This document shows, one piece after another, positions 1,919 through 21,361 of a stretch of DNA of 21,361 nt. Numbering within the stretch: the stretch's first letter is position 1; every line of letters starts with the position of its first letter. Source of the DNA: a virus (lineage: Duplodnaviria > Heunggongvirae > Uroviricota > Caudoviricetes); the IMG/VR virus record IMGVR_UViG_3300033121_001642, positions 64,001 to 85,361 of that record. The stretch is one strand, 5' to 3'. The position numbers were made by a program, and so were the translations under genes. A model generated the notes under the pieces. That model worked only from the letters and a program-made list of their open reading frames with translations. It did not search any database and was not told the DNA's origin.

Positions 1919-3088
1919 ATGACTTTTAATTTGAAAAAAGCACAAGTAATCAACAACAGCGTAACGCCTCAGTCGGCTGCTGTTCCGTCTCATTCTAAGA
2001 AGTATAATCTTTCGTTAGAGGGAAGCGGCATCAAGTCCATTAATGGACTTCTTGAGGTAGACCGTCGTTCTTTGGGCGAAAGTCCGGAGACCCACGAGGG
2101 TCTTTTGAATGAGGCTCGTCGCAAGGCCTCTGTTTCGGAAAAAATAACAGAAGGAGCAATAGAGGACGCTAATTCTCCTCTATATCCTCATAGACAGTTT
2201 AAGGGCGGAGAAGATAACTATGTTGTTTCTCCGATCGACGCTCTTGCTCATGCTAATGATAGAAAGTTTAGAGACGCCTTTTCAAAGGCGAACAAGGGAT
2301 CAGACACTTCTTTTTGGGACAAGTTTGTAGGCGCTCAGCTTGATGGCGAGCCAACAAAGGTTATGCTTAACTTACCAGAAAAGGGCAGTCAGCTACAAAA
2401 TAGTCCTCATAGATTCGGAAATCTTGACGGCCTTCCTCATGATCCCGATGCAGCAACAAACAGAGAACGTTTTGGCAAAGAGCCTGACATCAAGCCAATG
2501 AATAAGAAAGAAAAACCAATTGAGATTACGGCTTCCCTAAAGAGTGCAGATAAGCTTTTGTTTGGTATTTATCTTAAAGCAAATAGAGAGGGCAGGGATC
2601 TTACCGCTTCGGAAAAAGAGATTGTTTCAGCGATCAACAATGATAAAGTAAATATTCTTATGTCTTTGGCTCAAACAGAAGATCCCCTTTCTGCTGATCC
2701 TAATAATCCTCCATTTGAACCTAATGTTTCTCCAGCGCCAGAACCTTCTGTGAATCCTCAGGATAGAGAAGCTGATTTTATGGACGGAAATCCAACAGTT
2801 AGCGGCGACGAGCATTATTGGGCAACACAAAGCGGTTTCTCGCCCCCTGTTGATGACATGGCCGATCCGAACGCCGCTGTCGATCCTAATGCCTCTATTG
2901 ACCCGAACGATGATTCTGGATTTGATTTCCCTGAACCTATGTCTGGGATTTCTGGAGTAACAAGTAGAGATGTTTCTTACACTGGAGGAATTGGTCAAAC
3001 AACTCCAAGCGAGCCAGAGTCTCCTGTTGATAACGCAATTGGTCTTCCAAATCCACAAGAGGATACCGTTGACGATGCTCCCTTTTAA
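1919..3088 (+). CDS. Hypothetical protein with FNLKKAQ leader and acidic Pro/Asp-rich C-terminal tail; probable head-associated protein
   Basis: GGAGG at 1906-1910 precedes ATG 1919, so the start is revised from the track's 1841. The C-terminal third is low complexity (DPNAAVDPNASIDPND). Confidence 0.8.
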   Translation: MTFNLKKAQVINNSVTPQSAAVPSHSKKYNLSLEGSGIKSINGLLEVDRRSLGESPETHEGLLNEARRKASVSEKITEGAIEDANSPLYPHRQFKGGEDNYVVSPIDALAHANDRKFRDAFSKANKGSDTSFWDKFVGAQLDGEPTKVMLNLPEKGSQLQNSPHRFGNLDGLPHDPDAATNRERFGKEPDIKPMNKKEKPIEITASLKSADKLLFGIYLKANREGRDLTASEKEIVSAINNDKVNILMSLAQTEDPLSADPNNPPFEPNVSPAPEPSVNPQDREADFMDGNPTVSGDEHYWATQSGFSPPVDDMADPNAAVDPNASIDPNDDSGFDFPEPMSGISGVTSRDVSYTGGIGQTTPSEPESPVDNAIGLPNPQEDTVDDAPF

Positions 3089-3515
3089 TCTATCTAAAAT
3101 AGCTCGAACAAATCCGCCAACCGCATTCGACCCTTCATCTCCTTTGTTGAATGATCCTTATAGAAGGTCAAAAGGAAAGCCGAATAGCGGTGCGGGTGAT
3201 GATCTTTTAAGACCAGGCGAAACCGGCGGTGGTCCTTTGTCTCAAAACAAAGACTGGCCTACAGACCAGCCTTTTATAACAGACGACGAAGATCGTCCAA
3301 AGAATGATAACGGAACTGGTATTGTAACTGATTATGGTTTAGAATTGCATGACGACTACCAGGGCCAAGGCGGTTCTTCTGGCTCGGACGCAGCTTTGGG
3401 AAGAAATCAGACAGTTATTCGACAGATAGACGATAATAGAGACAGAAAACCATTCAATTTGAATAGCGGAGATGGCGTACTTAGAGGCCTTAGAAAAAGA
3501 CTTAGAAGCATATAA
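3075..3515 (+). CDS. Hypothetical protein with PFNLSKIAR leader
   Basis: ATG 3075 has GAGGA upstream and overlaps the previous stop, so the start is revised from the track's 2970. G/D/P-rich. Confidence 0.72.
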   Translation: MLPFNLSKIARTNPPTAFDPSSPLLNDPYRRSKGKPNSGAGDDLLRPGETGGGPLSQNKDWPTDQPFITDDEDRPKNDNGTGIVTDYGLELHDDYQGQGGSSGSDAALGRNQTVIRQIDDNRDRKPFNLNSGDGVLRGLRKRLRSI

Positions 3516-3526
3516 GGAAAAAACAC

Positions 3527-4132
3527 ATGAAGATCAAAGTTGCAGATAGCGTAAAGGGTAAGTTGAACATAATTGGGCTGACAGGAACTCTTTTAGCAGG
3601 GCAAGAGGCCGATCTAACGAAAGAGCAGTTTTCGTCTTATCAGGTACAGAGTTTATTAAAGAGCGGTGTTTTGCAATCAAGTAGTTATAAACCTTCGGCT
3701 AACTTGCAATATAAGAACAATACTGGTAATAAGGTTAGAATGCCTTGGGGACAGATTATTGGACCCAATCAAGCATTTGATGTTGAGCTTGAAAACTCGT
3801 CTTCTGTTCGTTTTTTGAATCTTATCAAAGAAGGGTTTATATCTCAGTTTGATAAACCAAAAACGGAAGAGGGGAAGCCAAAAATTGTAAAAGAGAAAAA
3901 ATCTAAAACTGTTGATAAACTTCCAAAGAACACGAAAGACGTTGTTGATTCTCAAAAACCCCCAAAAGATACTTATATTCACGATCCTAATGTAAAAACA
4001 AAGGCTTATGTTGAAAATAGAATTTCCGAAATTGAAAAAGATCTTGAAGAAGGTAATTTTGTAGATAAGAAGCAAACAAGAGATAGACTTTTAAAAATGC
4101 AAAACAGTTTAAGGAATCAACAGAAAGAATAA
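3527..4132 (+). CDS. Hypothetical protein with two tandem ~50-aa modules and Lys-rich C-terminal half
   Basis: AAGGA precedes ATG. Two similar segments end in LLKSGVL and LIKEGFI. Confidence 0.78.
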   Translation: MKIKVADSVKGKLNIIGLTGTLLAGQEADLTKEQFSSYQVQSLLKSGVLQSSSYKPSANLQYKNNTGNKVRMPWGQIIGPNQAFDVELENSSSVRFLNLIKEGFISQFDKPKTEEGKPKIVKEKKSKTVDKLPKNTKDVVDSQKPPKDTYIHDPNVKTKAYVENRISEIEKDLEEGNFVDKKQTRDRLLKMQNSLRNQQKE

Positions 4133-5483: not shown

Positions 5484-5719
5484 GTAATTGGTATAAAACA
5501 TCTCAAGTACAAACTCTAAAGTTTGATCCAAAAAGGCTTAAGAATCCTAATCAACCTAATCAAATAGATCCGAGGGTTAGGACGTTTCAACAAGCTTTTA
5601 CGACATTAGGCCTAAATGGTATAACTCAACTTTCTCAGGCAGATGTTATGGCTCTTGATTCTATACAGATGGAAATAAGAAAGAAGCTCCGTTCTTTTGG
5701 AGTTCAAGTGGGGTTCTAA
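5480..5719 (+). CDS. Small hypothetical protein (MSNWYKTSQ leader)
   Basis: ATGA overlap with the upstream gene. 79 aa, fills the operon gap. Confidence 0.7.
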   Translation: MSNWYKTSQVQTLKFDPKRLKNPNQPNQIDPRVRTFQQAFTTLGLNGITQLSQADVMALDSIQMEIRKKLRSFGVQVGF

Positions 5720-5720
5720 T

Positions 5721-6104
5721 ATGCAAAAAACTGCTCAACAATCTTTGATTGATATACTCATACAAATAATGCCGGCCTTGCAAGACGCAAGAGCGAGGCT
5801 TGTCAATAGGGGCGATGGTGTCAATAAGCAACTCTATTCTATGTGGTCCGATACAGGGAAGCTGTCAAATCGTAAGTTTTTGAAACCTGCAAATTTGGCT
5901 TCTGGCGAACTCAAGAAAATGGTAGAATCTGGTCTTGTCGAAGATCAAGGAAAGTACCTTAAGGTTACAGAGAAGGGCGCTCAAGCCTTAAAGGTAATGA
6001 TTCTTAATGATGATTCTTTTGCTTTAGAGAAGAGAGCGTCAAAAGAAGAAATTACTGGATGGTACTTGAGAGTCAAGAATGCAGACCTTACTTTTACAGA
6101 TTGA
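5721..6104 (+). CDS. Hypothetical protein with winged-helix-like C-terminal half
   Basis: ATG lies 1 nt after the upstream stop, so the start is revised from 5697. LKKMVESGLVEDQGKYLKVTEKGAQAL matches the recognition-helix/wing pattern (GLV...xTxKG) of winged-helix domains. Confidence 0.65.
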   Translation: MQKTAQQSLIDILIQIMPALQDARARLVNRGDGVNKQLYSMWSDTGKLSNRKFLKPANLASGELKKMVESGLVEDQGKYLKVTEKGAQALKVMILNDDSFALEKRASKEEITGWYLRVKNADLTFTD

Positions 6105-6441
6105 GAAAAAAAGAGTCAAGAAAGCACAGAAAGTCGAATCGACTCATTTTTGGTACAATCCAGAAACGGAGTCGATAGAAGCTCATCGTTGCGGTAAGCT
6201 TTCTTTTGTTTTTGATATTCAAACCGCTCGTTTAATGCCAAAACCTGAAGATGTTTATATCAATGTCTATACAGAGGTTAGCAATAAACAAGATATAGAG
6301 AAATGGATTCAAATTCATAATGATTATGTTGTTATTAATTCTGATTCTAGTTCTATGAATCAAATTGCTATCAACGTTGACGACAATGACGTTGGTTTTA
6401 TTCAGCAGTCATTGATTTTCGCAGGTATTAGATACGATTGA
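6079..6441 (+). CDS. Hypothetical protein
   Basis: 120-aa ORF overlapping the upstream gene by 26 nt. Exact start uncertain. Confidence 0.65.
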   Translation: MQTLLLQIEKKRVKKAQKVESTHFWYNPETESIEAHRCGKLSFVFDIQTARLMPKPEDVYINVYTEVSNKQDIEKWIQIHNDYVVINSDSSSMNQIAINVDDNDVGFIQQSLIFAGIRYD

Positions 6442-9044: not shown

Positions 9045-10025
9045 ATGAATCTTAATACACTGCCAACTTTGCGAGTAAAAATAGCAGATACAATTGACGC
9101 GCAAGCCCGGGGCTTAATGTTTGTTAAGAGTATGCCTAGGGACTGTGGCATGTTATTTGTTTTTTCATCGAATAGAAAACTTAGTTTTTGGGGAGAGAAC
9201 ACTTTTATTCCTCTTGATATTGCATTTGTAAATGATAAAGGAAAAATTGTTAATATTGAAACGATTTCTCCTTTGTCTAGAAGATCTGTTTCTAGCTCGT
9301 CTCCGTGTCAGTTTGCTGTTGAAGCTAACTTAGGATTCTTTCAGAGTAGCGGAGTTAGACCTGGTGATATGATGATTTTCAACAAAAGCGCGTCTGTGGT
9401 TTCTTTTGCCAAAAGAGACTCTAAAGAGCCGATATCTTCTTTAAGACTTGCTCAACAAATGACGGACGAAGAAATGCTTTCTAAGTTTCCAACATTATCT
9501 GATTATTTCAATCATCTTGATTCTCCAAACCAGCAACCTCAGAGAATAGAGGAAACTAATCTTCCAGTTTTAAGTCAAGACGAAATAGGGCAGTATATAG
9601 AAGATTCGATACAAGAACAGCAAGATATGCAACAGGAAGACGGACTTGCGGTTGAAGAACCGCCCTCTCCTGAAGACACTCAAGAGCAGGAGCAAGAGAG
9701 TTTAGAAGATCTTCAACAAAGAATCCCAACGTTCGGAAGCGTGTCTGAGGCTTTTAATTGGGCGCAAGAAAACAAAGAGGTTATGAAGATTTCGTATCAA
9801 ACAAAATCAAAAAAGAAGGGACTTCGTTTCTTTGGTAATAATGTAATAACTAGGTATATTGAGCCTCATGGAAGATTTACTTCTCATCCAGAGAATGAGC
9901 CTTCCCATGAGATTCTTGTAACTTTTGATGAAACCGTTGGAGGAATTAGGGCCTTTCGTATGCAAAATGTAAGAGAGTTTTCTATTGTTGGAAAAAAGTT
10001 CAACCCTAAGTTTATTGTTCGATAA
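9045..10025 (+). CDS. DUF192 domain + acidic linker + WYL-like domain fusion protein
   Basis: N-terminal VKIADT..AQARGLMF...GMLFVF...FWGENTFIPLDIAFV...FAVEANLG is the DUF192 pattern. C-terminal MKISYQ...TRYIEPHG...ILVTFDETVGGIRAFRMQNV is a WYL-like pattern. Confidence 0.82.
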   Translation: MNLNTLPTLRVKIADTIDAQARGLMFVKSMPRDCGMLFVFSSNRKLSFWGENTFIPLDIAFVNDKGKIVNIETISPLSRRSVSSSSPCQFAVEANLGFFQSSGVRPGDMMIFNKSASVVSFAKRDSKEPISSLRLAQQMTDEEMLSKFPTLSDYFNHLDSPNQQPQRIEETNLPVLSQDEIGQYIEDSIQEQQDMQQEDGLAVEEPPSPEDTQEQEQESLEDLQQRIPTFGSVSEAFNWAQENKEVMKISYQTKSKKKGLRFFGNNVITRYIEPHGRFTSHPENEPSHEILVTFDETVGGIRAFRMQNVREFSIVGKKFNPKFIVR

Positions 10026-10040: not shown

Positions 10041-11402
10041 ATGGATAATATCATTCGATTGCTTGTGGAAGCAGCAGAAGCTCTTGACGCTCAAGGCCTA
10101 CGAGCTATAGCAGATAAGGTTGATAAGGTAGCAAATAAGGCCTTTGATGTTAAAACGGCTCAATATGTAGGTATACAGGGCTACGCCGTTAGGAATTCTA
10201 GATGTTGGGGTAACTGCTATAGACAGAAGAGGACTTCTTTTCCAAATAAATCCGCTCAACAGGTTTGGACAGAGTGTCACAAAGAATATGTTGAATCATT
10301 GAATAATGACGGTTCTAAGTGGGACAAGTACGCAGGTTCAGAAAACAACATTAAAATTGGTTCTGAGCTTCATGCTTTCTCTCAAGAAGTTAATGCAAAA
10401 ATTGCTAGTAAGGTTGAAGAGAAAATTGCTGAAGGTTTAGACATTGGCTCTGCCGTTTATGCTTCAATTGAAGAGGTTGCAAGCGAGCCAAATGAGCTTA
10501 TGATTTCTGCAAGTAATGAAATTATGGACATTGCGTCTAGACTTGTTTCTAACCCAGAAATAGCCGAAAAGCTTACAGCCGCTGCTGAAGAAATGGTAAA
10601 AGAAGCTGGTATAATGGATTTTTTCAAGGGCGTTGGACAGGGAGTTAAGAATTGGGGTAGTAACGTTGCTTATACTGGAAAACTAAGCTCATCAATAAAT
10701 CAACTAAATAGTAATTTTGAAGAATTCAAGAAAGCTTACGGTCAGGCCAATCAAACTTGGGGACAGCTTTCAGGCAATATTTCTTCTTTGTCGCAAGAGT
10801 TAAATAGGGCTGCAAATGACCCGAACTCGACTCCTCAGCAAAAACAACAAGCTTCAACAGCGATGCAGCATCTTAGTAATGTTTCAAGTTTGATAAAGGC
10901 GAAAAATATTCAAGGCGTAATGCAGAACTGGCCTAATACTCTAACTTCTTTGAATTCTATACTGAGAGGTAATTATGGCAGTTCTCCAGCCGCTCCGACC
11001 TCTGCTCCGACCTCTGCTCCAGCAACTGCTCCAGCAACTGCTCCAGCAACTGCTCCAGCAAGCGCTCCAACAACTCCGTCCTCTACTCCAGCAAGCGCCT
11101 CTCCAGCAGCCGCTCCTGGAGTTAATCCGTCAGCGTCTTCTAATCCATTAGGAGGAGCTTCTCCTGCGGCGACAACCTCAACTCCTAGCGGCCCAATAGG
11201 AACCATGCCTACGGGAAGCTCGTTTAGCGGTCCCTCGTTTAGCGGCGGAACCTCAACCATGACAGGCCCTGGAGCGGGCGGCGGTGGAGGTTCCGCTATG
11301 ACGGGCCCTGGGGTTGGAGCAAATCCTACAGCGCCAGCCGCTCCAACAGGCCGTCCTCCGCAACCAAGAAACAAAGGTAGGTTTGCTCCAAGAAAACCTT
11401 AA
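10041..11402 (+). CDS. Hypothetical protein: helical/Cys-containing N-terminus, coiled-coil-like middle, Pro/Ala/Ser/Thr/Gly-rich tail
   Basis: AAGGAG RBS, 453 aa. CWGNC...C motif near the N-terminus and a low-complexity C-terminal ~145 aa. Confidence 0.82.
   Translation: MDNIIRLLVEAAEALDAQGLRAIADKVDKVANKAFDVKTAQYVGIQGYAVRNSRCWGNCYRQKRTSFPNKSAQQVWTECHKEYVESLNNDGSKWDKYAGSENNIKIGSELHAFSQEVNAKIASKVEEKIAEGLDIGSAVYASIEEVASEPNELMISASNEIMDIASRLVSNPEIAEKLTAAAEEMVKEAGIMDFFKGVGQGVKNWGSNVAYTGKLSSSINQLNSNFEEFKKAYGQANQTWGQLSGNISSLSQELNRAANDPNSTPQQKQQASTAMQHLSNVSSLIKAKNIQGVMQNWPNTLTSLNSILRGNYGSSPAAPTSAPTSAPATAPATAPATAPASAPTTPSSTPASASPAAAPGVNPSASSNPLGGASPAATTSTPSGPIGTMPTGSSFSGPSFSGGTSTMTGPGAGGGGGSAMTGPGVGANPTAPAAPTGRPPQPRNKGRFAPRKP
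10992..11075 (+). repeat. Seven tandem 12-bp units encoding AP(T/A)(S/T)
   Basis: gctccgacctct x2, gctccagcaact x3, gctccagcaagc, gctccaacaact; all in frame within the CDS. Confidence 0.92.
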
Positions 11403-11430: not shown

Positions 11431-11482
11431 CAGAAATCAAGAACAGGCTAAATAGCCATTAGATCCAAAGGAGTGTATTGAT

Positions 11483-12133: not shown

Positions 12134-12160
12134 ATCTCTTCCAACAATTAGGAGTTCGTA

Positions 12161-12931
12161 ATGCGCATTGTCCCGAGCGGTACTAAAAGAACAGTTACGG
12201 CTCAGCAGGCTAAGCCAGGGAATCCTCCTCCAAGAGAGGGGATTCAACAGGAGGATATAACTCCTGGGGCAAAACCTGCTGAGGGCGGTGACTTTAATCC
12301 AATGGCTAAGCTTGATAATACACTTCAGCAAAAACTAACGGCAAAACCAGCGGTTCCAAATCAACAACAGCTTGCGAATTCTCTAAAGTTTCCAGGCGCT
12401 CAACAGCAAGATCCAAAGCAAGCAATTGCTAAGAATATTGAGAACATTCAAGCCTTCAAAGAAGACTTTACAGGCTTTGTTCAAAAATTCAATATCAATA
12501 TGCAGCTTATTACAAGAGATAAAAATAAGCGAAAAATGCTTGATCGTATGTTCAAGATAGCTCCAACAACAGGTAAAGGTCGTATCGAAATACCTGGTTG
12601 GTGGATTGGCCCAGACGGTCAGCGCCATGTTATACAATACACAGAGGCGTATCAGTCTTTGAAAGAAATAGCAAACAATCATGAGTTTGAGATTGTTCCG
12701 ACAGAAATGGGCATGGGCGAGGATGTTTATGTATTTGACGTAAATCCTCTATCCGCTTCTGTTGAAGAAACCCCTGCTCTTAATGGTCTAGAGCAAATGT
12801 ACGGTAGCGGAGCGGGTAATTCTGATCATGGCGAAAGAAAAGCAGCAGAATCTAGACACTCCTTTATCAAACAAAGTCACAATGAAATTCTAGCCTCTCT
12901 TATGAAGAGCGGTTTTGGAGGTAAAAGATGA
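12161..12931 (+). CDS. Hypothetical protein (Gln/Pro-rich N-terminus)
   Basis: AGGAG RBS, 256 aa. Confidence 0.8.
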   Translation: MRIVPSGTKRTVTAQQAKPGNPPPREGIQQEDITPGAKPAEGGDFNPMAKLDNTLQQKLTAKPAVPNQQQLANSLKFPGAQQQDPKQAIAKNIENIQAFKEDFTGFVQKFNINMQLITRDKNKRKMLDRMFKIAPTTGKGRIEIPGWWIGPDGQRHVIQYTEAYQSLKEIANNHEFEIVPTEMGMGEDVYVFDVNPLSASVEETPALNGLEQMYGSGAGNSDHGERKAAESRHSFIKQSHNEILASLMKSGFGGKR

Positions 12932-13704
12932 TTCGTAAACAAGCTCAAAAATCAAGTCTTGTTGATGCTCTTCTTGGAACGTCAGATAAGAAGTCCGATT
13001 ATCGTAAAGAAGTTAATGAAAGACAGCCTGAAATGAAGCAAGCCAAGAAGATTGAAAAAGATCGTTCTTGGGCTAAGCAGGAGAATAGAGTTGCTGAATA
13101 CAACAACCCTATTGCTCGTGGTGTTTCTAGCGTAAGGCCTTCTCGTTGCGCAAGCAAGGGTGGTATTACCGATATGGGCGGTCCAACAAAGCAGATTGGC
13201 TGCGAAAGCAATAACTCTGTTTGGGATTCTGATATTCTCGGGAAGAAAGCTGAAAATATTTCTTCTAGAGAAGCAACAGCAGAAGAAAAAGCTTCGTCTG
13301 ATAGAATTCGTCAAAAGAAACAAGCAGAATATAAGCAAAGCATGAGTCCTAAACTTGGCGAAGACGCCGACGCTCTTGCTCAGAAGTCTTCTTCTGTAAA
13401 TCCAGCCTCTGCTAAGAGTAGCGGCAAGGGATGGGTTCCTTCGAATAAGATTAGCATGTTTGATAACAACTTGAACTTTGATAGATTGACAGCTATTGAG
13501 AATAGAGTTAGTCCAAAGGTTGAAAAGCAAGAAGTAAAGAAGGCAAGCCATCTTGGTAACAAGAAGGTTGCTTCTTCGAAGGACATGACCAATAGATTTG
13601 TTGACGGCATAGTTGATCAAAAGAAAGACTCTTCCTACAAGAGCGTTCATGACGATGCAACCTCTAGATTGTTCAAGGTTTTGTCTGAAAGAAACAAGGA
13701 GTAA
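12928..13704 (+). CDS. Hypothetical Lys/Ser-rich protein (MIRKQAQ leader)
   Basis: GGAGGT RBS and ATGA overlap, 258 aa. Confidence 0.8.
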   Translation: MIRKQAQKSSLVDALLGTSDKKSDYRKEVNERQPEMKQAKKIEKDRSWAKQENRVAEYNNPIARGVSSVRPSRCASKGGITDMGGPTKQIGCESNNSVWDSDILGKKAENISSREATAEEKASSDRIRQKKQAEYKQSMSPKLGEDADALAQKSSSVNPASAKSSGKGWVPSNKISMFDNNLNFDRLTAIENRVSPKVEKQEVKKASHLGNKKVASSKDMTNRFVDGIVDQKKDSSYKSVHDDATSRLFKVLSERNKE

Positions 13705-13707: not shown

Positions 13708-14934
13708 ATGCCTGTAACGCCAGGGCCATCTGCTGCTAATGGAATCGAAAAGGTTAATCTTGGTCTTGCTCAGCAGGCTAATAACAACCTTCAGGCTGTC
13801 AATCCAGGCGTTGACCCAACAAGGCCGAAGTTTGAACAGCAGAATTTTTTGGATACACTAAGACAGGAATTGGAAATGGCTCAAGAAGAGGCTACTCAGG
13901 GGATTGACGACGTTGATCAAGAGCAATCGGACGTAAACAACGTTAGCGGGATGCCTATTATGGCTTCTTATTTTAATCTATCAAAGGTTGCCCAGTTTCA
14001 AGAGGCCCCAATGATGGGCGGAGATATTGGGGTTCCTATGGCTGACCCAGCGATCGATCCAATGGCTACAGATCCTTCAATTGATCAGTCTCAGCCAGAT
14101 TTGCAATCTCAGTTTAATAGTCCGCAAGAACTTCAATCTTTGTTGGATCAAAATGCGGATAATCCTGAATTTATAAACGAAATAGTTCAGTCGGCTCCTA
14201 CTGATAGTCAATCTCTTGTTAGAGACGCTGTTCAGAGATATTATGAGCCAGAAAGAGATCCTGCCGACAAAACGATTATAGCGGCAGAAGTTTTCAAAGC
14301 CATTCACGGCAGAGGACAAGGGGAAGAAACAGTGGATGCGAATTATACTCAAGCTTCAGCAGAAAATGCTGTAAATGAAACATTGAAAATAATTGAGGCG
14401 TTTGCAAAGAAAGCTGCTTCGTCTCAGAAAATAAACAAGAAAGCTTCTTACAATCTTAAGAAAGAAGCTCAGTACGGTGTTAATAGAAATGGTGGAAGTG
14501 AGTTTATTAACTTTGGTCCAGACTCTAAGAGGGTCTTTCCTCATAGCAACACAGGGCTTCTTGGCAGCGAGTGGCATAACTGGATTAGAGGTCGAGACCA
14601 TAACTTCATTTTCGACGACAGAGCGTTTGATTTCGAAACTTTCTGGCGCGGTAATATAATGGATAAGTACAGCCAGCCTTATCGTAATGATAAGGGAGAA
14701 TGGGTTGGCGGTTATATCAACAAGAGATTTGATGTAGATCGCAACATACCAGAAGGTAATAACTTGCAGTTGTTGCCAGGGCAGCGTCGTCGTCCATATT
14801 TGCCAGAGTTTGCGACTATAGAGGCCCGCATGGAGGCTTCAAGAAAGAAGATGGCAGAGGATAGGAGATACGAGCCAACAGATACAGAAGCTAAGCCTTA
14901 TAACTGGAAAGAAGCTGCTGTAAAAAAAAAGTGA
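13708..14934 (+). CDS. Hypothetical protein with internal FNLSKVAQ and YNLKKEAQ motifs
   Basis: AAGGAG RBS, 408 aa. Acidic N-terminal half and aromatic-rich C-terminal domain. Confidence 0.82.
   Translation: MPVTPGPSAANGIEKVNLGLAQQANNNLQAVNPGVDPTRPKFEQQNFLDTLRQELEMAQEEATQGIDDVDQEQSDVNNVSGMPIMASYFNLSKVAQFQEAPMMGGDIGVPMADPAIDPMATDPSIDQSQPDLQSQFNSPQELQSLLDQNADNPEFINEIVQSAPTDSQSLVRDAVQRYYEPERDPADKTIIAAEVFKAIHGRGQGEETVDANYTQASAENAVNETLKIIEAFAKKAASSQKINKKASYNLKKEAQYGVNRNGGSEFINFGPDSKRVFPHSNTGLLGSEWHNWIRGRDHNFIFDDRAFDFETFWRGNIMDKYSQPYRNDKGEWVGGYINKRFDVDRNIPEGNNLQLLPGQRRRPYLPEFATIEARMEASRKKMAEDRRYEPTDTEAKPYNWKEAAVKKK
14922..14931 (+). other. Candidate -1 ribosomal frameshift site (A9 run; A_AAA_AAG at 14925-14931)
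   Basis: The heptamer is in the correct X_XXY_YYZ phase directly before the stop. The -1 frame is the open frame of the next ORF. Confidence 0.45.
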
Positions 14935-15364: not shown

Positions 15365-17638
15365 ATGGCAGATAAACCGATTAGGATGCAACTCCCGAAT
15401 AAGCAAGCTGTTACCAAGATGGCTTCTGCTAAAGGTGTTGTTATGAAAGACGGAGCCGTAACAACCAAGCCTTATTCTACATCTAGCGTTGTTAGTGTTC
15501 CAATTACAAAAGCCGCGCAGTTTGCTGGTTCTGGCGCTAATGTTATTATGGCTCAGCCTATGTTCTTTTCGCCTTTGCACACTCCTCAGAACTGGCAGAT
15601 TGCAAGCAAGAGGAAAGAAGTCTATCAGTGGGCGAGGTTTTATTATGAAAACGAACCCAAAGTCGCTGCTGGTATAGATTTTTACTCGCAGTTCCCAATT
15701 AACGGTCTAAAGCTTGAATGTAAAAAGAAGAGCGTATTACGCTTCTTTGAAAGGCTTATTGAAAAGATAGAGTTGATGTATTGGCTTAGAATGGTAAGCC
15801 ATCAACGTTTTCTTCTTGGCGACGTTTTTGTAATGACTGAAATCGAGTGTCCCCACTGCAAGGGCACGGGCGTTGATTCTGAAAAGAACGAACCATGTAA
15901 TCACCCTGACGGTTCTATAAGCAAGTTGACAGTTCTCAATCCTGATTGGATTGAGGTTATGAAGACTCCTATTTCGCAAGAACCACAGATTGTTCTTTTG
16001 CCAGACGAAGAACTTCAAAGAATTATTCAAACAAAGCAGCCTAAGTTTTTGTATGATCAAATCCCTGATAATATCAAAGTTCAGATTATGGCTAAGAGGC
16101 CTATTTTGCTTTCCAATAGAGTCACAAGCCATGTAAAACATGGCGGAAGCCCTTATGGAACTTATGGAGAATCTCTTCTTCGTAGATTATTTACCGTTTT
16201 GGCATACAAAACAAAGCTTATGACAGCAAACTGGATTGTTGCTGAAAGGCTTATACTTCCGGTTAGAGTTGTTAAGGTTGGTTCGGACGAAAGACCAGCG
16301 GACGACGACGCAATTGCGGACGTTTCTGCTCAGCTTGCTGCGGTTGCTAATGATCCCAATCTTACTATTGTAACTCATAACAATTTTGATTATGAATGGT
16401 ACGGAGCAAGCGGTAAGATACACAACATCAATCAAGAACTCGAATACGTTGGTAAAGAGATTCTTGACGGATTGATGCTTAATCAAACTCTTTTGAACGG
16501 AGAGATGGCCGGTTATAACTCAGCACAGGTCGGTGTTGAGGTTATGATTCGTCGTCTTGAGTCTTGGAGAAATGAACTTGCTCAATGGATTGAGAAGCAT
16601 ATTTTTCTTCCTGTTGCAAAGATGCAAGGGTTTATTGACGAAGAAGCTTCTGAAGAGTTTGGAGAAACAGTCTATCTGTTCCCGAAAGTTAAGTGGGAAG
16701 ATCTTAGACTTAGAGATAATACTAATCAGCTTCAAATGTTCTTACAGATGCAGCAGAGCGGTTTGATTTCTGCTCAAACTCTTTTGGAAGAATTTGATTT
16801 GGATTATGATTTAGAAACGGAAAGAATTAGAAACGAACAAGTACAAGCCATGCAAAACGGACAGCTTATGGCGGGCGGACAGATGGGCGGAATGGGCGGC
16901 GGCATGGGAGGCGGAATGGGCGGCGGAATGGATATGGGCGGTGGCATGGGCGGGGCTCCTGGCATGGACCCAACGGGCGGCATGGGCACTCCTGGCATGG
17001 GCGGGGCTCCTGGTATGGACCCAACAGGTGGCATGGGCGGTGGTATGGGAGGAGGAATGGGTGGAGGTATGGGAGGCGCTCCCGGTGTAGCCGCTGGCGG
17101 AGGAGATGGAAAGATTTACAGAAGAGGTAAGGCTCCTAAAGCTAAAGAAAGCGAAATGCAACCTATAAGACCAACAACCATACAGCTAACCAAGCCTGAA
17201 TCAAAGATGTATAGGACGCTTCTATCCATGAAGCTGCCTTTTAGATTGTTTGCTCAATATAAGCAACCAGTTCCAAGCGATTCAAATTTTTATCTTATGG
17301 ATTTTGCAATTCCTGAGCTTGGTGTTGATATTGAAGTGGACGGAGAAAAGTGGCATTCTTCTGTTGAAGACAGGCAGAAGGATAAAGAAAGAGACATGAC
17401 TCTTGCTTCTTATGGTTGGAGGGTTTTGCGGTTTACCGAGCAAGCTATTGGCGAGCATTTAGACAAGGTTGAGCAAGTCGTTCGCAAAGAAGTTGAAGAG
17501 GCGTCAAAGGAAAAGAAAGCTTTGTCTAAGAAGGCACAAGTAGAAGAAAGTGCGAATTATAAACCTGTTGGGTTTAGTCCTTTTGACGGATGCGTCGTTT
17601 CTAAGTATACTGCTGACAATGGAGCTAAGCAAGGATGA
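15365..17638 (+). CDS. Phage portal protein with Zn-binding insert, Gly/Met-rich linker and C-terminal DUF559/Vsr-like endonuclease domain
   Basis: Portal-like core (WARFYYENEPKVAAGIDFYSQFP, LGDVF, VLNPDWIEV, SPYG..GESLLRRLF, PVRVVKVG) and position upstream of the protease. The C-terminal TKPE...MDFA...IEVDGEKWH...D..RD..L...GWRVLRF matches DUF559. Confidence 0.85.
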   Translation: MADKPIRMQLPNKQAVTKMASAKGVVMKDGAVTTKPYSTSSVVSVPITKAAQFAGSGANVIMAQPMFFSPLHTPQNWQIASKRKEVYQWARFYYENEPKVAAGIDFYSQFPINGLKLECKKKSVLRFFERLIEKIELMYWLRMVSHQRFLLGDVFVMTEIECPHCKGTGVDSEKNEPCNHPDGSISKLTVLNPDWIEVMKTPISQEPQIVLLPDEELQRIIQTKQPKFLYDQIPDNIKVQIMAKRPILLSNRVTSHVKHGGSPYGTYGESLLRRLFTVLAYKTKLMTANWIVAERLILPVRVVKVGSDERPADDDAIADVSAQLAAVANDPNLTIVTHNNFDYEWYGASGKIHNINQELEYVGKEILDGLMLNQTLLNGEMAGYNSAQVGVEVMIRRLESWRNELAQWIEKHIFLPVAKMQGFIDEEASEEFGETVYLFPKVKWEDLRLRDNTNQLQMFLQMQQSGLISAQTLLEEFDLDYDLETERIRNEQVQAMQNGQLMAGGQMGGMGGGMGGGMGGGMDMGGGMGGAPGMDPTGGMGTPGMGGAPGMDPTGGMGGGMGGGMGGGMGGAPGVAAGGGDGKIYRRGKAPKAKESEMQPIRPTTIQLTKPESKMYRTLLSMKLPFRLFAQYKQPVPSDSNFYLMDFAIPELGVDIEVDGEKWHSSVEDRQKDKERDMTLASYGWRVLRFTEQAIGEHLDKVEQVVRKEVEEASKEKKALSKKAQVEESANYKPVGFSPFDGCVVSKYTADNGAKQG
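16868..17110 (+). repeat. Gly/Met-rich GGGM repeats including a duplicated 45-bp block
   Basis: 16943-16987 and 16994-17038 both encode GMGGAPGMDPTGGMG (3 synonymous differences by hand count), flanked by GGGM runs. Confidence 0.92.
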
Positions 17639-18078
17639 ATGATTTAGTTTATAACTTAGAGAAAATTGCTGGTCGTAAACGAATCAAGGACCGCGGTATT
17701 AAGTGGGAAGAGATGTATCGAGAAAGATCTATACCTCTTAAGGAAAAGTTTGAAAAGCAGGTCGGTCCTGGCGCTTATCATAGATGGGAAGGCCATGATT
17801 ATACAACAAACTCAATATATTATGTTGTTGTTGGTCCTTCTTTACAGCATAATGTAGGTAAGGTCTTTTTTGCGGGAATTAAAAAAATCCCTATTGAGGA
17901 GTTTACAAAAGATCCTGACACAAAGACATACAGCCCTTATGGAGAATATTTTCCAACGATAAAGGGCGCGCTTATTTACGCAAGTCAAAGGTGGGGAACC
18001 CCTGTCCCTAAGGGCCAAGTCCCATATAATAGAGAGTCCCTTGTAAACGCAGATATACCGGAGCATGTTAAGGCATGA
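17635..18078 (+). CDS. Hypothetical protein (YNLEKIA leader) between portal and protease
   Basis: ATGA overlap with the portal stop, GGAG upstream, 147 aa. Confidence 0.8.
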   Translation: MNDLVYNLEKIAGRKRIKDRGIKWEEMYRERSIPLKEKFEKQVGPGAYHRWEGHDYTTNSIYYVVVGPSLQHNVGKVFFAGIKKIPIEEFTKDPDTKTYSPYGEYFPTIKGALIYASQRWGTPVPKGQVPYNRESLVNADIPEHVKA

Positions 18079-19958
18079 ACATTGATCCAATGTCAATCAT
18101 TAGTAATCTTTTGCTAAAGCAAGCGGACATGCCTGCTATGCCTGGTTCTATCAATATTAAGAATCGAAGTCTTGATTTTCATGTATTTGACAGAAATAAA
18201 CTTAAGCAGCATCTTTCTAAATTACCAGATGTTGTAAAACAAAGTATACAAAGACAGATAGCCGAGTTCGATAAAGCTTTTAAGAGATTCCCCTCTGCTA
18301 AATCAAACGAGTATTCTGGCATGCTTCGCATTGCTTATGCTGAAGATCGATTAATTGGCGATTCTGAGCTTAAAGACCTTCAAAGAGAGCGTCCTGAACT
18401 TTTGCAGACAGCGCAGTTTGCAAGAGAGTATGGTTTGCAGCTTCCAATAAGCGCTTCAGGATTTTCTGGAGGCAACAAAATAGATAAAGGCATCGGCTCT
18501 AAGCATTGGTTTTCTATTTTTGGTTATGCTTATCAAGACTTGGCCGCAAATGGTCTTCAATATCATGTGTCGCAAAAATATAACAAAATACCTCGGCAGA
18601 TTCAAGAGAATGTTGGTGGAAAAGAATATCCTAACTCGACTAATGGAAACTTTCAAGTCGTTCCGTCTGGTGAGGGTTTTACGTTTGGTATTGTAAACGT
18701 TCATGGCGTTACAAACGTTTTTGATTCAACTGTTACTACAAATACGATTACGATGAAGAAATTCTTCAATGATCCTATTATTATGAATCGTAGCGCTGTT
18801 TATGTTTCTCCTGTAGAAGGTTTTGTTCCTGACGAGCAAGCTCTTGCTGCTCAGTTTAATCCTCAGTCTTTGAATATACGTTACGTCAATAATGCTGATA
18901 TGATTATTAAAAACAATCCTGAGCAAGCTAAGTTTATTTGGGGAATTTTTGCAGATCCAGAATCAGGGGCAATGTATCTTCAGAAAAAGATAAGATATGG
19001 AGCGGGTGGCCGTCCTGCAATTAATAAAGAAACAGGCGAAAGAGTTGAAAGAGTTACGGGCGAAAAGCTTTATTTATCGCAAGAACAAGTAGCCGCTCTT
19101 GCGAATAAGAATACGCTTGGTAAAGTTTATAGAGTAACCGCCCAGGCTCAGGGCGAAGATCTTGATGTTTCTGAGGTTGCAAGCGGATATAAATTTATCT
19201 ATTCAATAGACGACGAGAATACGGTTCAAAAAATAATGAACCCAAAGAACAAGGAAGAGTTTGTTTATTCTGTTCCGGCGTTGAAGCAACTTAAACAGTG
19301 GCTTGATACGAATGTTGATCGTTATTCGTTTGACGAGAATGGCGGTATTGTTAAGGCTCAAAACTCTCATACAGCTTTAGAGGGCTTTATTATTTACATG
19401 GCTGGTCCTGATTTTTCGACAGGACAAAATGCTGGCCAAGCAAAGACCACTGGTAAGCAGGACATGGTTCAGTATAAAGATATTCCAAATGAAGAACCAG
19501 AGTTCTGGGGCGGTTCTGTTGTTACAAACAGACAGTCGTTTGTTGTTGTTGCAAAACAAATATCTATACCAAGAATGATGGCTAGCGAAAGATATTATGA
19601 AACAAAGCTTGGACAAAAGAAACTTATACTTTCTCCTTGGAGAGAAGTTAGAAGCGGATTGCCTTCTCTTTCTTCCGCAGTTGCAGAAATGAAGAAAATT
19701 ATTGTTGGCGAGGGAGGTAGAATTGTTGAAGATAATGAAGGAAATCTAATTGAACAAGATCCGCTACCAAATCTTAGTCCAGAAGCAAAAGGTGTTCAAA
19801 GAGCAGATAAGGTGTTTAATCAGTTTGTAGGAAGAGAGCCGATAAAGCCTATTAAGCAGCCTCCTGTTCTCCGTCCTCCGGTTGAAGATGTTGAGCCTGA
19901 CGCGCAAGCATCTAGTCTAGCTAAGAGAATTATTAGGAGTTTGAACGAAAATGTTTGA
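18075..19958 (+). CDS. Large hypothetical protein
   Basis: ATGA overlap, 627 aa, no family recognised. Confidence 0.82.
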   Translation: MNIDPMSIISNLLLKQADMPAMPGSINIKNRSLDFHVFDRNKLKQHLSKLPDVVKQSIQRQIAEFDKAFKRFPSAKSNEYSGMLRIAYAEDRLIGDSELKDLQRERPELLQTAQFAREYGLQLPISASGFSGGNKIDKGIGSKHWFSIFGYAYQDLAANGLQYHVSQKYNKIPRQIQENVGGKEYPNSTNGNFQVVPSGEGFTFGIVNVHGVTNVFDSTVTTNTITMKKFFNDPIIMNRSAVYVSPVEGFVPDEQALAAQFNPQSLNIRYVNNADMIIKNNPEQAKFIWGIFADPESGAMYLQKKIRYGAGGRPAINKETGERVERVTGEKLYLSQEQVAALANKNTLGKVYRVTAQAQGEDLDVSEVASGYKFIYSIDDENTVQKIMNPKNKEEFVYSVPALKQLKQWLDTNVDRYSFDENGGIVKAQNSHTALEGFIIYMAGPDFSTGQNAGQAKTTGKQDMVQYKDIPNEEPEFWGGSVVTNRQSFVVVAKQISIPRMMASERYYETKLGQKKLILSPWREVRSGLPSLSSAVAEMKKIIVGEGGRIVEDNEGNLIEQDPLPNLSPEAKGVQRADKVFNQFVGREPIKPIKQPPVLRPPVEDVEPDAQASSLAKRIIRSLNENV

Positions 19959-21361
19959 AAAACGAGCAAAAACTAATGCCCAAATGAGCGTTGAAGCTCT
20001 TCATGTTCCTAAAGGTGGCGCATGGGATTATTATAATACTTCTCGCATTAAGGTTGCTTCTATTGATAAGACCAAGAAAGCTGATCTTGGTGGATTTGAT
20101 ATACAGGCGGCAATTGAAAAGAATCCAGACAACCTGTTTGTTAAAGTTTTTGCTATTAAAGCAAATGAAGTAAATGATAATGGCGATTGTTTTTCGGAAG
20201 AGGAACTCAAAAAAGCCGCTCATACCTTTGTTGGCGTTCCTGTTTTTGTAAATCACCAAAATGATAATGTAGAAAACGCAAGAGGCAAGGTTGTTCACTC
20301 TTGGTATGACGAGCCTTCAAAAGGTGTTTATTGCATTAACATGGTTGATAGAGCCGCTTATCCAAGACTTGCTAGAGGTATTGAAGAGGGATACATTACT
20401 GGTACGTCAATGGGAGCGCAGGTTACTTATTCTATTTGCTCAATTTGTCATAATAAAGCTCATACGGCGGACGAGTTTTGCACTCATATAAAGGGCGGTA
20501 AAAATCGTAAAATTAGCGGCAAGTATGATTGCAAGTACCATGATAGCCCTTGTAAGCCCACAGATCCATGCCCTCTAGATGGTAAGAAAAAGAACGAGGA
20601 ACATGAACTTCTTCATAAAGAAGCAAAAGTATATGAATGGAATTATGATATAAAGTTTATTGAAGACTCGTTTGTTGTAAATCCAGCATGCCATGATTGC
20701 TTGGTTTGCGATATTCTCAATCTTGATAATGTAAAAACAAAGGTTGCTGATAAGATTGAAGAATTGAAAAAGGTTGCTTCAAGACTTAGCGGTGCCGTTG
20801 ATACAATGAAAGACGGTTCGCTAGAAAAGACTGCGGGTAAGGCGGAGCTTCAAGCTCTTACTCAAGCCATGAATCTTATGGAGCATGTTGCTCGCTCCAT
20901 GATGGCTCAAAAGCAGCAAATTCAGCTAGATTATGTAAGCGATCTTGTTGAACAACTTGCTAAGGTTCAATCTCTTACTGACGAACTAACAGAGATGGGC
21001 TATGCTCAGCTTCCTTCTCCGCCAGAACAGGCTGTTGCTCTTGGAAATGTTATGTCTTTAGATCCATCAATGGCGGGTACTGGCGCTGCTCAGCAAGTAT
21101 CTAATCCAAGTCAAGTTGGACAAGGCGCTCAAAGCCTAACACAGCCGCCTCAACCTCAAACCACCCCCCAGGGGGCTCCTCAATCCGGCCCTATGGCTGG
21201 ACTGGGAAGCGTTACAAGACCAAGTTTTGTTGGAGCATCTGAAGAATTAAAGAAGGAATTTTTGAAGCAAGGCGAGAATATCACCAGTAAGCTAGCCAGT
21301 GTTAGCTCTGCATTGCGCGCTTCAATCGTTCTGCTAGCACAAAGGAGTAAGGAAGTGGCTG
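19951..21361 (+). CDS. Prohead (capsid maturation) protease, HK97-like fold, with Cys/His-rich insert and long C-terminal extension (3' partial; absent from supplied ORF track)
   Basis: Hand translation shows an open frame of 470 codons to the window end, with AGGAG at 19935-19939. Motifs: NDNGDCF, PVFVNHQ (His codon 20254), GTSMG (Ser codon 20407) and FIEDSFVVNPA (E-x-S-x-V-x-x-P-A). Confidence 0.87.
   Translation, partial: MFEKRAKTNAQMSVEALHVPKGGAWDYYNTSRIKVASIDKTKKADLGGFDIQAAIEKNPDNLFVKVFAIKANEVNDNGDCFSEEELKKAAHTFVGVPVFVNHQNDNVENARGKVVHSWYDEPSKGVYCINMVDRAAYPRLARGIEEGYITGTSMGAQVTYSICSICHNKAHTADEFCTHIKGGKNRKISGKYDCKYHDSPCKPTDPCPLDGKKKNEEHELLHKEAKVYEWNYDIKFIEDSFVVNPACHDCLVCDILNLDNVKTKVADKIEELKKVASRLSGAVDTMKDGSLEKTAGKAELQALTQAMNLMEHVARSMMAQKQQIQLDYVSDLVEQLAKVQSLTDELTEMGYAQLPSPPEQAVALGNVMSLDPSMAGTGAAQQVSNPSQVGQGAQSLTQPPQPQTTPQGAPQSGPMAGLGSVTRPSFVGASEELKKEFLKQGENITSKLASVSSALRASIVLLAQRSKEVA

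Follow-up and report, generated by a model that had tools for sequence, protein, structure and literature searches.

Encapsulin cargo-loading peptides are short terminal peptides that direct unrelated enzymes into a shell of the HK97 fold and are not cut. The phiKZ protease gp175 cuts after Glu, at S/A/G-x-E. In phage T4, internal proteins and Alt carry a capsid-targeting sequence (Mullaney and Black, 1996, as cited in PMC10052503), and the cleavage motif of the T4 protease gp21 is I/LxE (bioRxiv 10.64898/2026.03.04.709575). In phage SPN3US the protease gp245 cleaves a 64-residue propeptide from its own C-terminus and N-terminal propeptides from eight head proteins, the portal among them; Ser is preferred at P1' (PMC10052503). 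Herpesvirus proteases, which are made as protease-scaffold fusions, cut after Ala at the R and M sites (YLQA-T and VQA-S; PMC4498786).

The window analysed here is a stretch of 21,361 nucleotides from a giant uncultured phage, a relative of Bacillus phage G. A sequence-only reading had proposed that this phage marks about a dozen diverse cargo proteins with a Lys-x-Ala leader, for loading into the prohead and for processing by its own protease; no description of the motif was found in the literature searched. The underlying count is correct: 11 of the 19 plus-strand ORFs have K-x-A within their first 17 residues, all 11 at the ORF starts given. Three of these starts (1919, 3075 and 5721) were that reading's own choice of an internal ATG; the starts at 1919, preceded by GGAGG, and at 3075 are backed by ribosome-binding sites and by the starts of orthologues. 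Against the rate in interior windows (0.073), 11 of 19 plus-strand ORFs corresponds to a binomial p of 1.4e-8, and K-x-A ranks first among 1200 two-residue patterns tested. Lys makes up 11.8% of N-termini and 7.4% of interiors. Shuffles that preserved the N-terminal composition (K 11.8%, A 8.9%) gave 2.4 to 2.7 ORFs as the expected number and never reached 11 in 20,000 trials. The extended form K-x-A-[SQGND] occurs within the first 18 residues of 8 of the 19 ORFs (rate 0.034, p = 8.5e-8). Codon use at the motif is mixed (AAA 11 times, AAG 9 times; GCA, GCT and GCG all used), and selection therefore acts on the protein rather than on the DNA.

Table 1. K-x-A features of the window and the protease domain, with positions counted from the first nucleotide of the window. 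A dot or an x in a motif stands for any residue.
Feature	Position	Strand	Remarks
FNLKKAQ tag, ORF 1919-3088 (389 aa, putative protein)	1925..1945	+	FNLKK[AS]Q in orthologues, 32-91% identity
FNLSKIAR tag, ORF 3075-3515	3084..3107	+	[FY]NLSKxAR identical in four orthologues, 57-91% identity
KIKVAD, ORF 3527 (probably not a tag)	3530..3547	+	orthologues read MKIKAVAE, MKLNVVET, MNFKVAPT
NWYKTSQ variant tag, ORF 5480-5719 (Ser replaces Ala)	5486..5506	+	kept in close relatives
QKTAQQ N-terminus, ORF 5721-6104	5724..5741	+	M[QEK]KTAQQS conserved in relatives, 62-94% identity
VKKAQ, ORF 6079 (probably chance)	6115..6129	+	absent from orthologues of 25-40% identity
VKIAD, ORF 9045 (rejected as a tag)	9075..9089	+	first strand of a DUF192 domain
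Four head-module proteins, ORFs 10041, 11483, 12161, 12928	10041..13704	+	many internal K-x-A sites
IRKQAQ N-terminus, ORF 12928-13704	12931..12948	+	RK[QHN][AST][QDEN] in orthologues; Ser often replaces Ala
Internal full tag YFNLSKVAQ, ORF 13708-14934	13969..13995	+	F89 and Q96 invariant in 8 orthologues
Internal double site INKKASYNLKKEAQ, ORF 13708-14934	14431..14472	+	K244, A246, N249, L250, K252 and A254 invariant in 8 orthologues
C-terminal tag PYNWKEAAVKKK, ORF 13708	14896..14931	+	N399, W400, K401, E402 and A403 invariant
Portal N-terminal extension, LPNKQAV and TKMAS, before the portal fold	15392..15427	+	LP[ND]K.[AI][AS] conserved in relatives
YNLEKIAG tag, ORF 17635-18078 (147 aa, adjoins portal gene)	17650..17673	+	[YF]NL.K.AG conserved to 49% identity
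LLLKQAD N-terminus, ORF 18075-19958 (627 aa)	18108..18128	+	LLK[QT][AS]DM conserved to 30% identity
Protease-scaffold ORF, truncated at contig end	19951..21360	+	about 2000 aa in relatives
FEKRAK, extreme start of protease-scaffold ORF	19954..19971	+	MF[EK]K[RK]A conserved in all relatives; disordered segment 1-42
RIKVAS, just ahead of protease fold	20044..20061	+	[IV]K[TVL]A at the aligned place in 16/20 homologues, 33-57% identity; pLDDT <50
Assemblin / T4 gp21-fold serine protease domain (model), residues 45-257	20083..20721	+	AF2 pLDDT mostly 85-97
C-side cluster KTKVAD, LKKVASR, LEKTAG, directly past protease fold	20734..20838	+	pLDDT 39-53

As leaders, eight of the eleven instances are conserved and three, in ORFs 9045, 6079 and 3527, are not tags. 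VKIAD of ORF 9045 belongs to a DUF192 domain (Pfam match to residues 10-110), and two distant orthologues (L012 and L013) read E-[IV]-A-D-T at this place. The copy in ORF 6079 is probably due to chance, judging from its orthologues, and that in ORF 3527 is weak and probably no tag by the same kind of comparison. Among the N-terminal tags of orthologues, Ser often takes the place of Ala (FNLKKSQ, RKQSD, NWYKTSQ). The NWYKTSQ variant of ORF 5480 is of the same type as MNWYK tags elsewhere on the contig, and the distant orthologues of this ORF begin with MKKIATKSY, which contains K-I-A. The similarity of the window portal to other portals begins near residue 58; at the position equivalent to its N-terminal extension the portal of phage G has FQMAKQAAS. 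The tag of ORF 17635 closely resembles the C-side site of the protease itself (ILEKVAS), and its orthologue in L012 reads SYNLKKA...KIKVAG. In ORF 18075 the N-terminal copy is the sole K-x-A site, where 3.3 are expected.

Tags also occur away from N-termini. The two internal [FY]NLxKxA copies described earlier in ORF 13708 are present, and a third copy, YNWKEA, lies at its C-terminus. YFNLSKVAQ is located within a poorly conserved linker with a pLDDT of about 30 and the double site also has low pLDDT, but the model of this protein is poor throughout (mean pLDDT 45.7), so that 'disordered' is a weak statement here. The C-terminal tag runs into an A9 slippery run. The string G-T-A9-G-T is conserved, and ORF 13708 and the zinc-ribbon ORF 14931-15353 are fused in one relative (L008); the slippery run may likewise fuse the two products in the window.

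Most copies of the motif, which had been taken to be chiefly a leader, sit within scaffold-like proteins of the head module, where K-x-A-[S/Q/G/N/D] is over-represented 3 to 5 times. ORFs 10041, 11483, 12161 and 12928, whose products are candidate scaffold, core or internal proteins, have 8, 7, 5 and 6 K-x-A sites (2.9, 3.9, 1.7 and 2.9 expected), and the product of ORF 5721 has 5 (1.1 expected, z 4.2). With the proteins of these four ORFs and of ORFs 5721 and 13708 pooled, 22 K-x-A-[SQGND] sites are found against 5.1 expected (z 8.1). The protease-scaffold protein of relatives, with its roughly 2000 residues, is enriched to an equal degree: two such giant proteins have 19 (6.1 expected) and 25 (5.1 expected). 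Over these two proteins and the pooled head proteins of the window, z ranges from 5.5 to 9.0, and the control patterns A-x-K, R-x-A, K-x-S, K-x-G, K-x-V, E-x-A, KA and K-x-x-A are flat in the same proteins. The enrichment separates the head module from other genes: K-x-A occurs 71 times in the window against 37.8 expected, and 96 times in the other 64 kb of the contig against 94.8. In a 98%-complete relative of 494 kb, the head module contains 45 K-x-A-[SQGND] sites (18.1 expected), and there is no enrichment in the other 563 ORFs (174 against 160.8). The same K-x-A enrichment is seen in relatives of 38-50% identity and in phage G, in gp7 (14 against 7.3), the protease gp19 (8 against 2.6), gp21 (7 against 3.0) and the portal gp14 (5 against 2.4); the major capsid protein (MCP) and TerL of phage G have no K-x-A. 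The motif is specific and conserved: scaffold or core proteins are enriched in it, as are the ends of the portal, the minor head proteins and the protease, and the remaining proteome is not.

The modelled head protease has the fold of herpesvirus assemblin and T4 gp21. Its best VIA scores are Z 11.0 for the VZV protease (rmsd 2.4, 114 aligned), 10.5 for PRV pUL26N and 10.0 for T4 gp21, with unrelated folds from Z 6.6; the best 38 VIA matches are all herpesvirus proteases or T4 gp21, and the top Foldseek matches are all herpesvirus proteases. All 20 homologues keep the putative catalytic residues H102 and S153, whose spacing is akin to that of H85 and S140 in T4 gp21 (bioRxiv 10.64898/2026.03.04.709575). 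The domain matches a head maturation protease family (phrog_18299, 2.6e-11); the match to Pfam Peptidase_S78_2 is under the cut-off (19.5 against 24 bits). The four K-x-A sites that had been noted to bracket the protease, at residues 34, 264, 274 and 293 (nt 20050, 20740, 20770 and 20827), are all outside the core of the domain, in segments with pLDDT below 55, and are conserved across homologues of 33-57% identity. The copies inside the fold that were raised as a caveat, LKKAAH and HKEAK, exist and are located in a helix and a strand. A K-x-A stands no more than 45 residues ahead of the fold in 60 of 63 homologues, and an ILEKVAS-type site is present on the C-side in 41 of 53; these counts are not independent because the homologues are related to each other. 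Stand-alone forms of the protease carry a tail of about 45 residues after the C-side site. At least 90% of the sequences in alignment A1 keep V265 and A266 of the C-side cluster. From these patterns, RIKVAS is a candidate autocleavage site on the N-side and the C-side cluster a candidate release site.

In relatives the complete protease-scaffold protein has 2003 (L002), 1991 (L004) or 2008 (L010) residues. K-x-A occurs in it 42 times in L002 (20.5 expected; not reached in 2000 shuffles) and 41 times in L012 (17.4 expected). L-A-[QS] is conserved 14-17 residues from its C-terminus, where the Lys is not conserved. The position and composition of the long C-terminal part suggest that it is a scaffold.

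We hypothesize that K-x-A followed by S, Q, G, N or D is what the phage's own head-maturation protease recognizes and cleaves, a reading that we favour with slightly better than even confidence. A hydrophobic residue would usually precede the Lys by one or two places (P4 or P5, counted back from the presumed cut, with P1' the residue right after it). The presumed Ser/His enzyme forms the N-terminal domain of the protease-scaffold protein and, within the prohead, would release itself through the K-x-A sites on either side of its fold. The scaffold-like proteins, namely its own long C-terminal part and the products of ORFs 5721 and 10041-13708, would then be cut at many sites, and short N-terminal leaders would be trimmed off the portal and minor head proteins (ORFs 1919, 3075, 12928, 17635 and 18075). 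The processing half of the original proposal gains from the protease fold, the conserved flanking sites, the preference for S/Q/G/N/D at P1' and the internal enrichment in head-module proteins only; its emphasis on leaders and cargo is not supported. Several tagged proteins, such as the portal and the protease, are structural or assembly proteins. Some observations count against cleavage. The MCP family does not avoid K-x-A (1.31 against 1.59 expected) and retains one conserved IKAKEAI, and cleavage would shorten several leaders by just 5-7 residues, which would seem to make little sense if the leader did nothing else. The 2025 phage G proteome paper does not discuss processing.

Several other explanations can be weighed against cleavage by the head protease. 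That the motif has no function, and reflects Lys- and Ala-rich helical proteins, A-rich codons that aid translation after the start, or a post hoc choice of pattern and starts, is barely credible and already largely refuted. The Lys-rich N-termini, the three reader-chosen starts and the three non-tags among 11 instances speak for it, but shuffles that keep N-terminal or local composition never attain the observed counts, neither the reversed pattern nor the neighbouring ones are enriched, K-x-A ranks first, the motif residues are conserved within otherwise variable segments, their codons are mixed, and copies are found at C-termini and inside proteins as well. It is very unlikely that the peptides are a signal for another machine, such as a ClpXP-type unfoldase-protease or a chaperone, that recognizes short peptides at the N- or C-terminus and thereby times the turnover or folding of phage proteins. 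ClpX recognizes short terminal peptides as degrons, and some of these are rich in Lys and Ala; phage G encodes ClpP and ClpX, both detected in particle proteomics, and tags are present on enzymes outside the head module. However, a degron on the portal, scaffold and protease makes little sense, internal enrichment is limited to head-module proteins, and the best-conserved sites flank the fold of the head protease itself.

A docking peptide that is never cut is a more serious rival, although still an unlikely one. A single prohead receptor would recognize K-x-A-[S/Q] together with its hydrophobic flank; this receptor could be the scaffold, the HK97-fold capsid protein on its inner face, or some other hub. 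The many copies in the giant scaffold would provide avidity, and single copies at the ends would recruit the portal, minor proteins and enzymes in the manner of encapsulin cargo-loading peptides. The location of tags at the extreme N-terminus, the C-terminus and module joints is in agreement with docking, as is the small number of residues that cutting would remove. The aromatic-Asn-Leu/Trp element, invariant among ORF 13708 orthologues, is conserved beyond what a cleavage subsite would need, and a docking motif fits it at least as well. Since the N-terminal tags accept Ala to Ser and K-x-S is not enriched inside the scaffolds, terminal tags and internal sites may follow different rules. Docking without cutting does not account for the concentration of the motif in proteins that have to leave the head. 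Moreover, the S/Q/G/N/D after Ala, the conserved sites on either side of the protease fold and the tail after ILEKVAS match prohead-protease autocleavage sites (PMC10052503, PMC4498786). Docking and cutting are compatible, as the T4 targeting peptide does both.

Helicases, an acetyltransferase and a lysozyme-domain protein encoded far from the head module also have N-W-Y-K-x-A tags, and the N-terminal tag is therefore not a head-module feature. A short N-terminal peptide common to unrelated proteins is what characterizes T4-type targeting. By this analogy, the short leaders, [FY]-N-L-x-K-x-A and N-W-Y-K-x-A among them, may in addition serve as capsid-targeting peptides that work like the T4 sequence though outside its family: they end in K-x-A, lack the L/I-x-E ending and are unrelated to the T4 peptide in sequence. 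Under the cleavage reading, the aromatic-Asn-Leu/Trp part may add docking, and the peptide would be removed after loading. We further speculate, as a tentative and rather doubtful extension, that in Phage-G-like giant phages one bipartite peptide is both address and cut mark, loads dozens of unrelated enzymes into the capsid, to be injected together with the DNA, and has an Ala-Ser type of specificity shared with herpesvirus assemblins by descent from a common ancestor of the HK97-lineage maturation proteases. Such a peptide would consist of an aromatic-Asn-Leu/Trp dock and Lys-x-Ala followed by Ser or Gln; the enzymes concerned would be UvrD-like and SNF2 helicases, the acetyltransferase and the lysozyme-domain protein.

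If K-x-A is a cut site, the ends of mature head proteins become predictable in uncultured giant phages of a very large clade, with more than 1200 MCP homologues in public data, and in phage G, the only cultivated megaphage, for which existing methods suffice to test the cleavage reading and its consequences. In that case a simple sequence rule would also be at hand for choosing proteins that may be packaged and injected, and foreign proteins could be given a ready-made tag for loading into a capsid of very large size. A protease-scaffold fusion in a phage, with a protease that prefers Ala before and Ser after the cut, would place tailed phages and herpesviruses in close functional parallel.

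Compared with encapsulin cargo-loading peptides, the tags are alike in their short terminal form on unrelated enzymes, and differ in consensus. With T4 they share a short N-terminal peptide on unrelated proteins that ends in the presumed motif of the prohead protease, and the two proteases share a fold; Ala instead of Glu precedes the presumed cut, the peptides are dissimilar, and the phage tags are also located at C-termini and module joints. In SPN3US, phiKZ and 201phi2-1, many head proteins including the portal likewise have N-terminal propeptides with repeated copies of the motif of gp245 or gp175 (PMC10052503), but these propeptides are mostly long (111-254 residues), whereas many leaders here have 5-17 residues, and the lineage is separate. 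Herpesvirus pUL26 has the same protease fold (Z 9-11), as an N-terminal domain fused to a long scaffold part, with Ala before and often Ser after the candidate cut, and one candidate site (K-V-A-[SD]) lies directly past the phage domain, as does the herpesvirus release site (PMC4498786). In contrast to YLQA-T and VQA-S, the key residue of the phage motif is the Lys two places before Ala. The phage domain is shorter than the assemblins and has a Cys/His zinc-ribbon-like insert, and its presumed scaffold part, of about 1750 residues, contains around 40 candidate sites, where the herpesvirus protein has one or two.

The window forms the terminal 21.4 kb of an 85,361-bp phage contig, the end of which falls within the protease gene; ORF 19951 is incomplete in it. 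The features of the window, with gene starts assigned by a simple ribosome-binding-site rule, are listed in the table together with the fate of each N-terminal Lys-x-Ala peptide (K-x-A, or K.A as a search pattern). In relatives, the protease ORF is followed by genes for a decoration-like protein and a major capsid protein (MCP) that resembles phage G gp27 and lacks a delta domain. The minus-strand cassette, which breaks into the plus-strand head module, is kept in relatives, and K-x-A is absent from the N-termini of all three of its proteins. In the portal ORF, a Gly/Met linker leads to a C-terminal nuclease domain of DUF559/Vsr-like type, and two K.A sites (KKALSKKAQ) lie near the C-terminus. 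The match of this ORF to the related loci L004-L011 ends at residue ~501, and that to L001-L003 and L012-L014 extends into the C-terminal part.

Features of the window and N-terminal K-x-A peptides, with their forms in orthologues from 15 related viral contigs and three larger records
Feature	Position	Strand	Form in orthologues	Remarks
Large terminase gene, 3' end only, with LAGLIDADG insert	window start
Run of genes without assigned function	after terminase	plus
ORF 1919	from 1919	plus	FNLKK[AS]Q	conserved
Second element of ORF 1919, residues 26-34	1994-2020	plus	[KQ]K[YH]NLSL	follows FNLKKAQ; kept in all orthologues; Y-N-L core present, K-x-A absent
ORF 3075	from 3075	plus	[FY]NLSKxAR	conserved
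ORF 3527, KIKVAD	from 3527	plus	lost	probably no tag
ORF 5721	from 5721	plus	KTAQQS	conserved
ORF 6079, VKKAQ	from 6079	plus	lost	probably chance
Cassette: glycosyltransferase group 1, polysaccharide pyruvyl transferase, 89-aa protein	6409-8949	minus
ORF 9045, DUF192 protein, VKIAD	from 9045	plus	E-[IV]-A-D (distant relatives)	no tag; first strand of DUF192 domain
Five proteins without assigned function	ORFs 10041 to 13708			between DUF192 and zinc-ribbon proteins
ORF 12928	from 12928	plus	RKQ[AS]	conserved; Ser frequent in place of Ala
End of ORF 13708, slippery heptamer	14917-14934
Zinc-ribbon protein	14931-15353			after ORF 13708
ORF 15365, portal	15365-17638	plus	LP[ND]Kx[AI][AS]	conserved; assigned by 29% identity to Bacillus phage G gp14
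Two proteins without assigned function	directly downstream of portal
ORF 17635	from 17635	plus	[YF]NLxKxAG	conserved
ORF 18075	from 18075	plus	LLK[QT][AS]DM	conserved
ORF 19951	19951-21360	plus	MF[EK]K[RK]A	conserved; head-maturation protease domain at N-terminal end; runs past contig end
Zinc-ribbon-like insert of ORF 19951, residues 163-179	20437-20487

All 11 N-terminal K-x-A instances that the sequence-only reading had counted among the 19 plus-strand ORFs are present, compared with a rate of 0.073 in interior windows (p = 1.4e-8), and among 1200 two-residue patterns K.A gives the strongest signal. Against a background matched in N-terminal composition, the expectation is 2.4 to 2.7 instances, and a count of 11 was never reached in 20,000 shuffles. 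A bias of composition or of translation starts is ruled out by N-terminal and local-composition shuffles together with flat control patterns. Different codons are used at the motif, and the signal therefore lies at the protein level; this codon mixture and sequence-divergent variants likewise rule out a DNA-level motif (TGG-TAT-AAA, resembling an extended -10 promoter). Across the whole genome of a 494-kb relative, the first 17 residues show only a modest excess (51 K.A vs 37 expected, with crude gene calls), so a strong signal at N-termini is confined to the head module and a small number of further gene clusters. Eight of the 11 instances are kept as tags in orthologues, which are kin to one another, that of ORF 9045 is no tag, and those of ORFs 6079 and 3527 are probably none either.

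Many tags are longer, and a hydrophobic-x-K-x-A pattern is common to all their forms. In the window, the form [FY]-N-[LW]-(x)-K-x-A recurs: it stands at four N-termini and twice inside ORF 13708, and there is one further copy at the C-terminus of ORF 13708. The tag residues of this protein are invariant in eight orthologues and the neighbouring linkers are variable; its AF2 model is poor (mean pLDDT 45.7), and domain borders are not definable from it. The tag of ORF 17635, NLEKIAG, is near-identical to the C-side site of the protease itself, ILEKVAS. In the rest of the contig many proteins begin with N-W-Y-K-x-[AS] or near variants (MWYKIAQ, MDWLKKAS, MNWYKLSN, MNNYFDITKIAQ), among them a UvrD-like helicase with a topoisomerase zinc finger, an SNF2 helicase, a GNAT acetyltransferase, an AAA-type protein and a lysozyme-domain protein, located at G000:C1 (the whole source contig) 242-19564 (L036) and 31779-32588 (L037). 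The combination is reminiscent of the anti-restriction and cell-wall-cutting proteins that phages P1 and T7 package. A third form, MKRLIKKAS, occurs in phage G and low-GC relatives; MKRLIKKAS, MKRLVKA or M..RLKKTA starts many small proteins in L016 (phage G 1-45000), L017, L021, L026 and L028.

The junction between ORF 13708 and the zinc-ribbon ORF has features of its own. ORF 13708 ends GTA AAA AAA AAG TGA, which contains a dnaX-type A_AAA_AAG heptamer with the stop codon immediately after it, and the zinc-ribbon ORF lies in the -1 frame, has a GTG start and lacks a ribosome-binding site. Six relatives share the identical string G-T-A9-G-T despite differing flanking codons, and in locus L008 a tenth A joins the two counterparts into a single frame of 546 aa. 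From its sequence, the junction is a candidate for programmed -1 frameshifting or transcriptional slippage.

The motif had been described as a leader; the N-terminal signal is real, but K-x-A is more than a leader, as internal copies are in excess too. By per-protein counts against block shuffles, the window holds 71 K.A sites vs 37.8, a two-fold excess carried by ORFs 5721, 10041, 11483, 12161, 12928 and 13708 and the protease ORF, and the other 64 kb of the contig shows no excess (96 vs 94.8). The full-length protease-scaffold protein of one relative has 42 sites (20.5 expected; 0 of 2000 shuffles), K.A being its most over-represented gap-one pair. The identity of the residue after Ala matters: K.A[SQGND] is enriched in the pooled window proteins (22 vs 5.1, z 8.1) and in two giant proteins (19 vs 6.1, z 5.5; 25 vs 5.1, z 9.0), K.A with any other residue after it is barely enriched in them, and the control patterns A.K, R.A, K.S, K.G, K.V, E.A, KA and K..A are all flat in the same proteins. 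Two places ahead of the Lys, Leu or another hydrophobic residue is preferred.

The head module of the 494-kb relative (98%-complete) contains 45 K.A[SQGND] sites vs 18.1 expected, and its remaining 563 ORFs contain 174 vs 160.8. In phage G, K.A is enriched in gp7, gp11, portal gp14, protease gp19 and gp21, and the capsid protein and terminase have zero sites. The same enrichment is found in relatives with proteins just 38-50% identical. The capsid protein was examined for avoidance of the motif, which would be a sign of protease specificity; 120 MCP homologues give no such signal (mean 1.31 K.A vs 1.59 expected). The MCP (L040:5442-6335, minus strand, 297 aa) is highly conserved, at 72-99% identity among the best 120 of 1258 matches, and a single K.A site, IKAKEAI, is retained in 119 of these 120 sequences.

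Comparison of the protease-domain sequence with solved structures gave chance matches only, and the fold was therefore found through a structure model. In an AlphaFold2 model built with 20 homologues, residues 45-257 have high confidence, and residues 1-42 and ~258 onward are uncertain. The modelled core resembles herpesvirus proteases and T4 gp21 (Z 11.0, 10.5, 10.0); the first 38 rows of the structure comparison are all one or the other, with unrelated folds from Z 6.6. H102 and S153 are invariant in the aligned homologues. The four K-x-A sites said to surround the domain (K34; K264, K274 and K293) do lie in the uncertain flanks, and the caveat of copies inside the fold was justified, with one in a helix and one in a strand. 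Homologues at 33-57% identity have K-[TVL]-A before the fold and [KR]-V-A-[SD] after it, and outside the core, V265 and A266 belong to the small number of positions conserved in at least 90% of sequences. Stand-alone proteases of ~300 residues, like phage G gp19, have ILEKVAS after the fold and then a tail of ~45 residues.

The fold also contains a zinc-ribbon-like insert, which all 20 aligned homologues have, with C163, C166 and C177 invariant and H179 nearly so. The protease ORF measures 1991-2008 residues in relatives (for example L002:14602-20613) and 2356 in L012; the complete protein contains stretches of low complexity, Gly/Met-rich and acidic, and around residue 1045 a second CxxC...CxxC element. 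L013 has two separate genes, one for the protease (641 aa) and one for a K.A-rich protein of 1460+ aa.

We consider it somewhat probable that the head protease cuts at K-x-A where a small or polar residue comes next. The protease would free itself, break down the scaffold-like proteins, and remove the short leaders from the portal and minor head proteins. With less confidence, we speculate that longer leaders may dock proteins in the prohead and then be removed, like the T4 capsid-targeting sequence. Against cleavage, the loss of merely 5-7 residues has no clear purpose, Ser often replaces Ala in the N-terminal tags yet K.S is not in excess at internal sites, and the capsid protein does not avoid K-x-A. 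A motif that serves for docking only is a serious rival, albeit a rather unlikely one; cleavage and docking are compatible, and both can be true. The N-L...A pattern had also suggested mimicry of the Prp / ribosomal protein L27 leader, N-L-Q-F-F-A↓S, which we dropped because Lys-x stands in these tags where the Phe-Phe core would be. We also set aside clamp-binding motifs, since the tag is found on the portal and on the protease.

No description of the K-x-A motif was found in the literature searched, and the text of the 2025 phage G proteome paper does not discuss protein processing. T4, phiKZ and SPN3US are established cases of shared cleavage motifs and of targeting peptides at the N-terminus, and the kind of system is therefore already known. 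The SPN3US protease cuts off its own 64-residue C-terminal propeptide (PMC10052503), a layout like that of the candidate C-side K-x-A site and ~45-residue tail here. In herpesviruses, the precursor that joins protease and scaffold makes cuts in itself after Ala, at the release site that follows the protease domain and at the maturational site close to the C-terminus (PMC4498786), and the candidate Ala site behind the protease domain here is placed like that release site. What is new is the motif itself, with Lys at P3, Ala at P1 and Ser/Gln at P1' of the predicted cut, its likeness to the herpesvirus sites, the three lineage-specific flavours of the tag, and its spread across a very large uncultured clade plus phage G.
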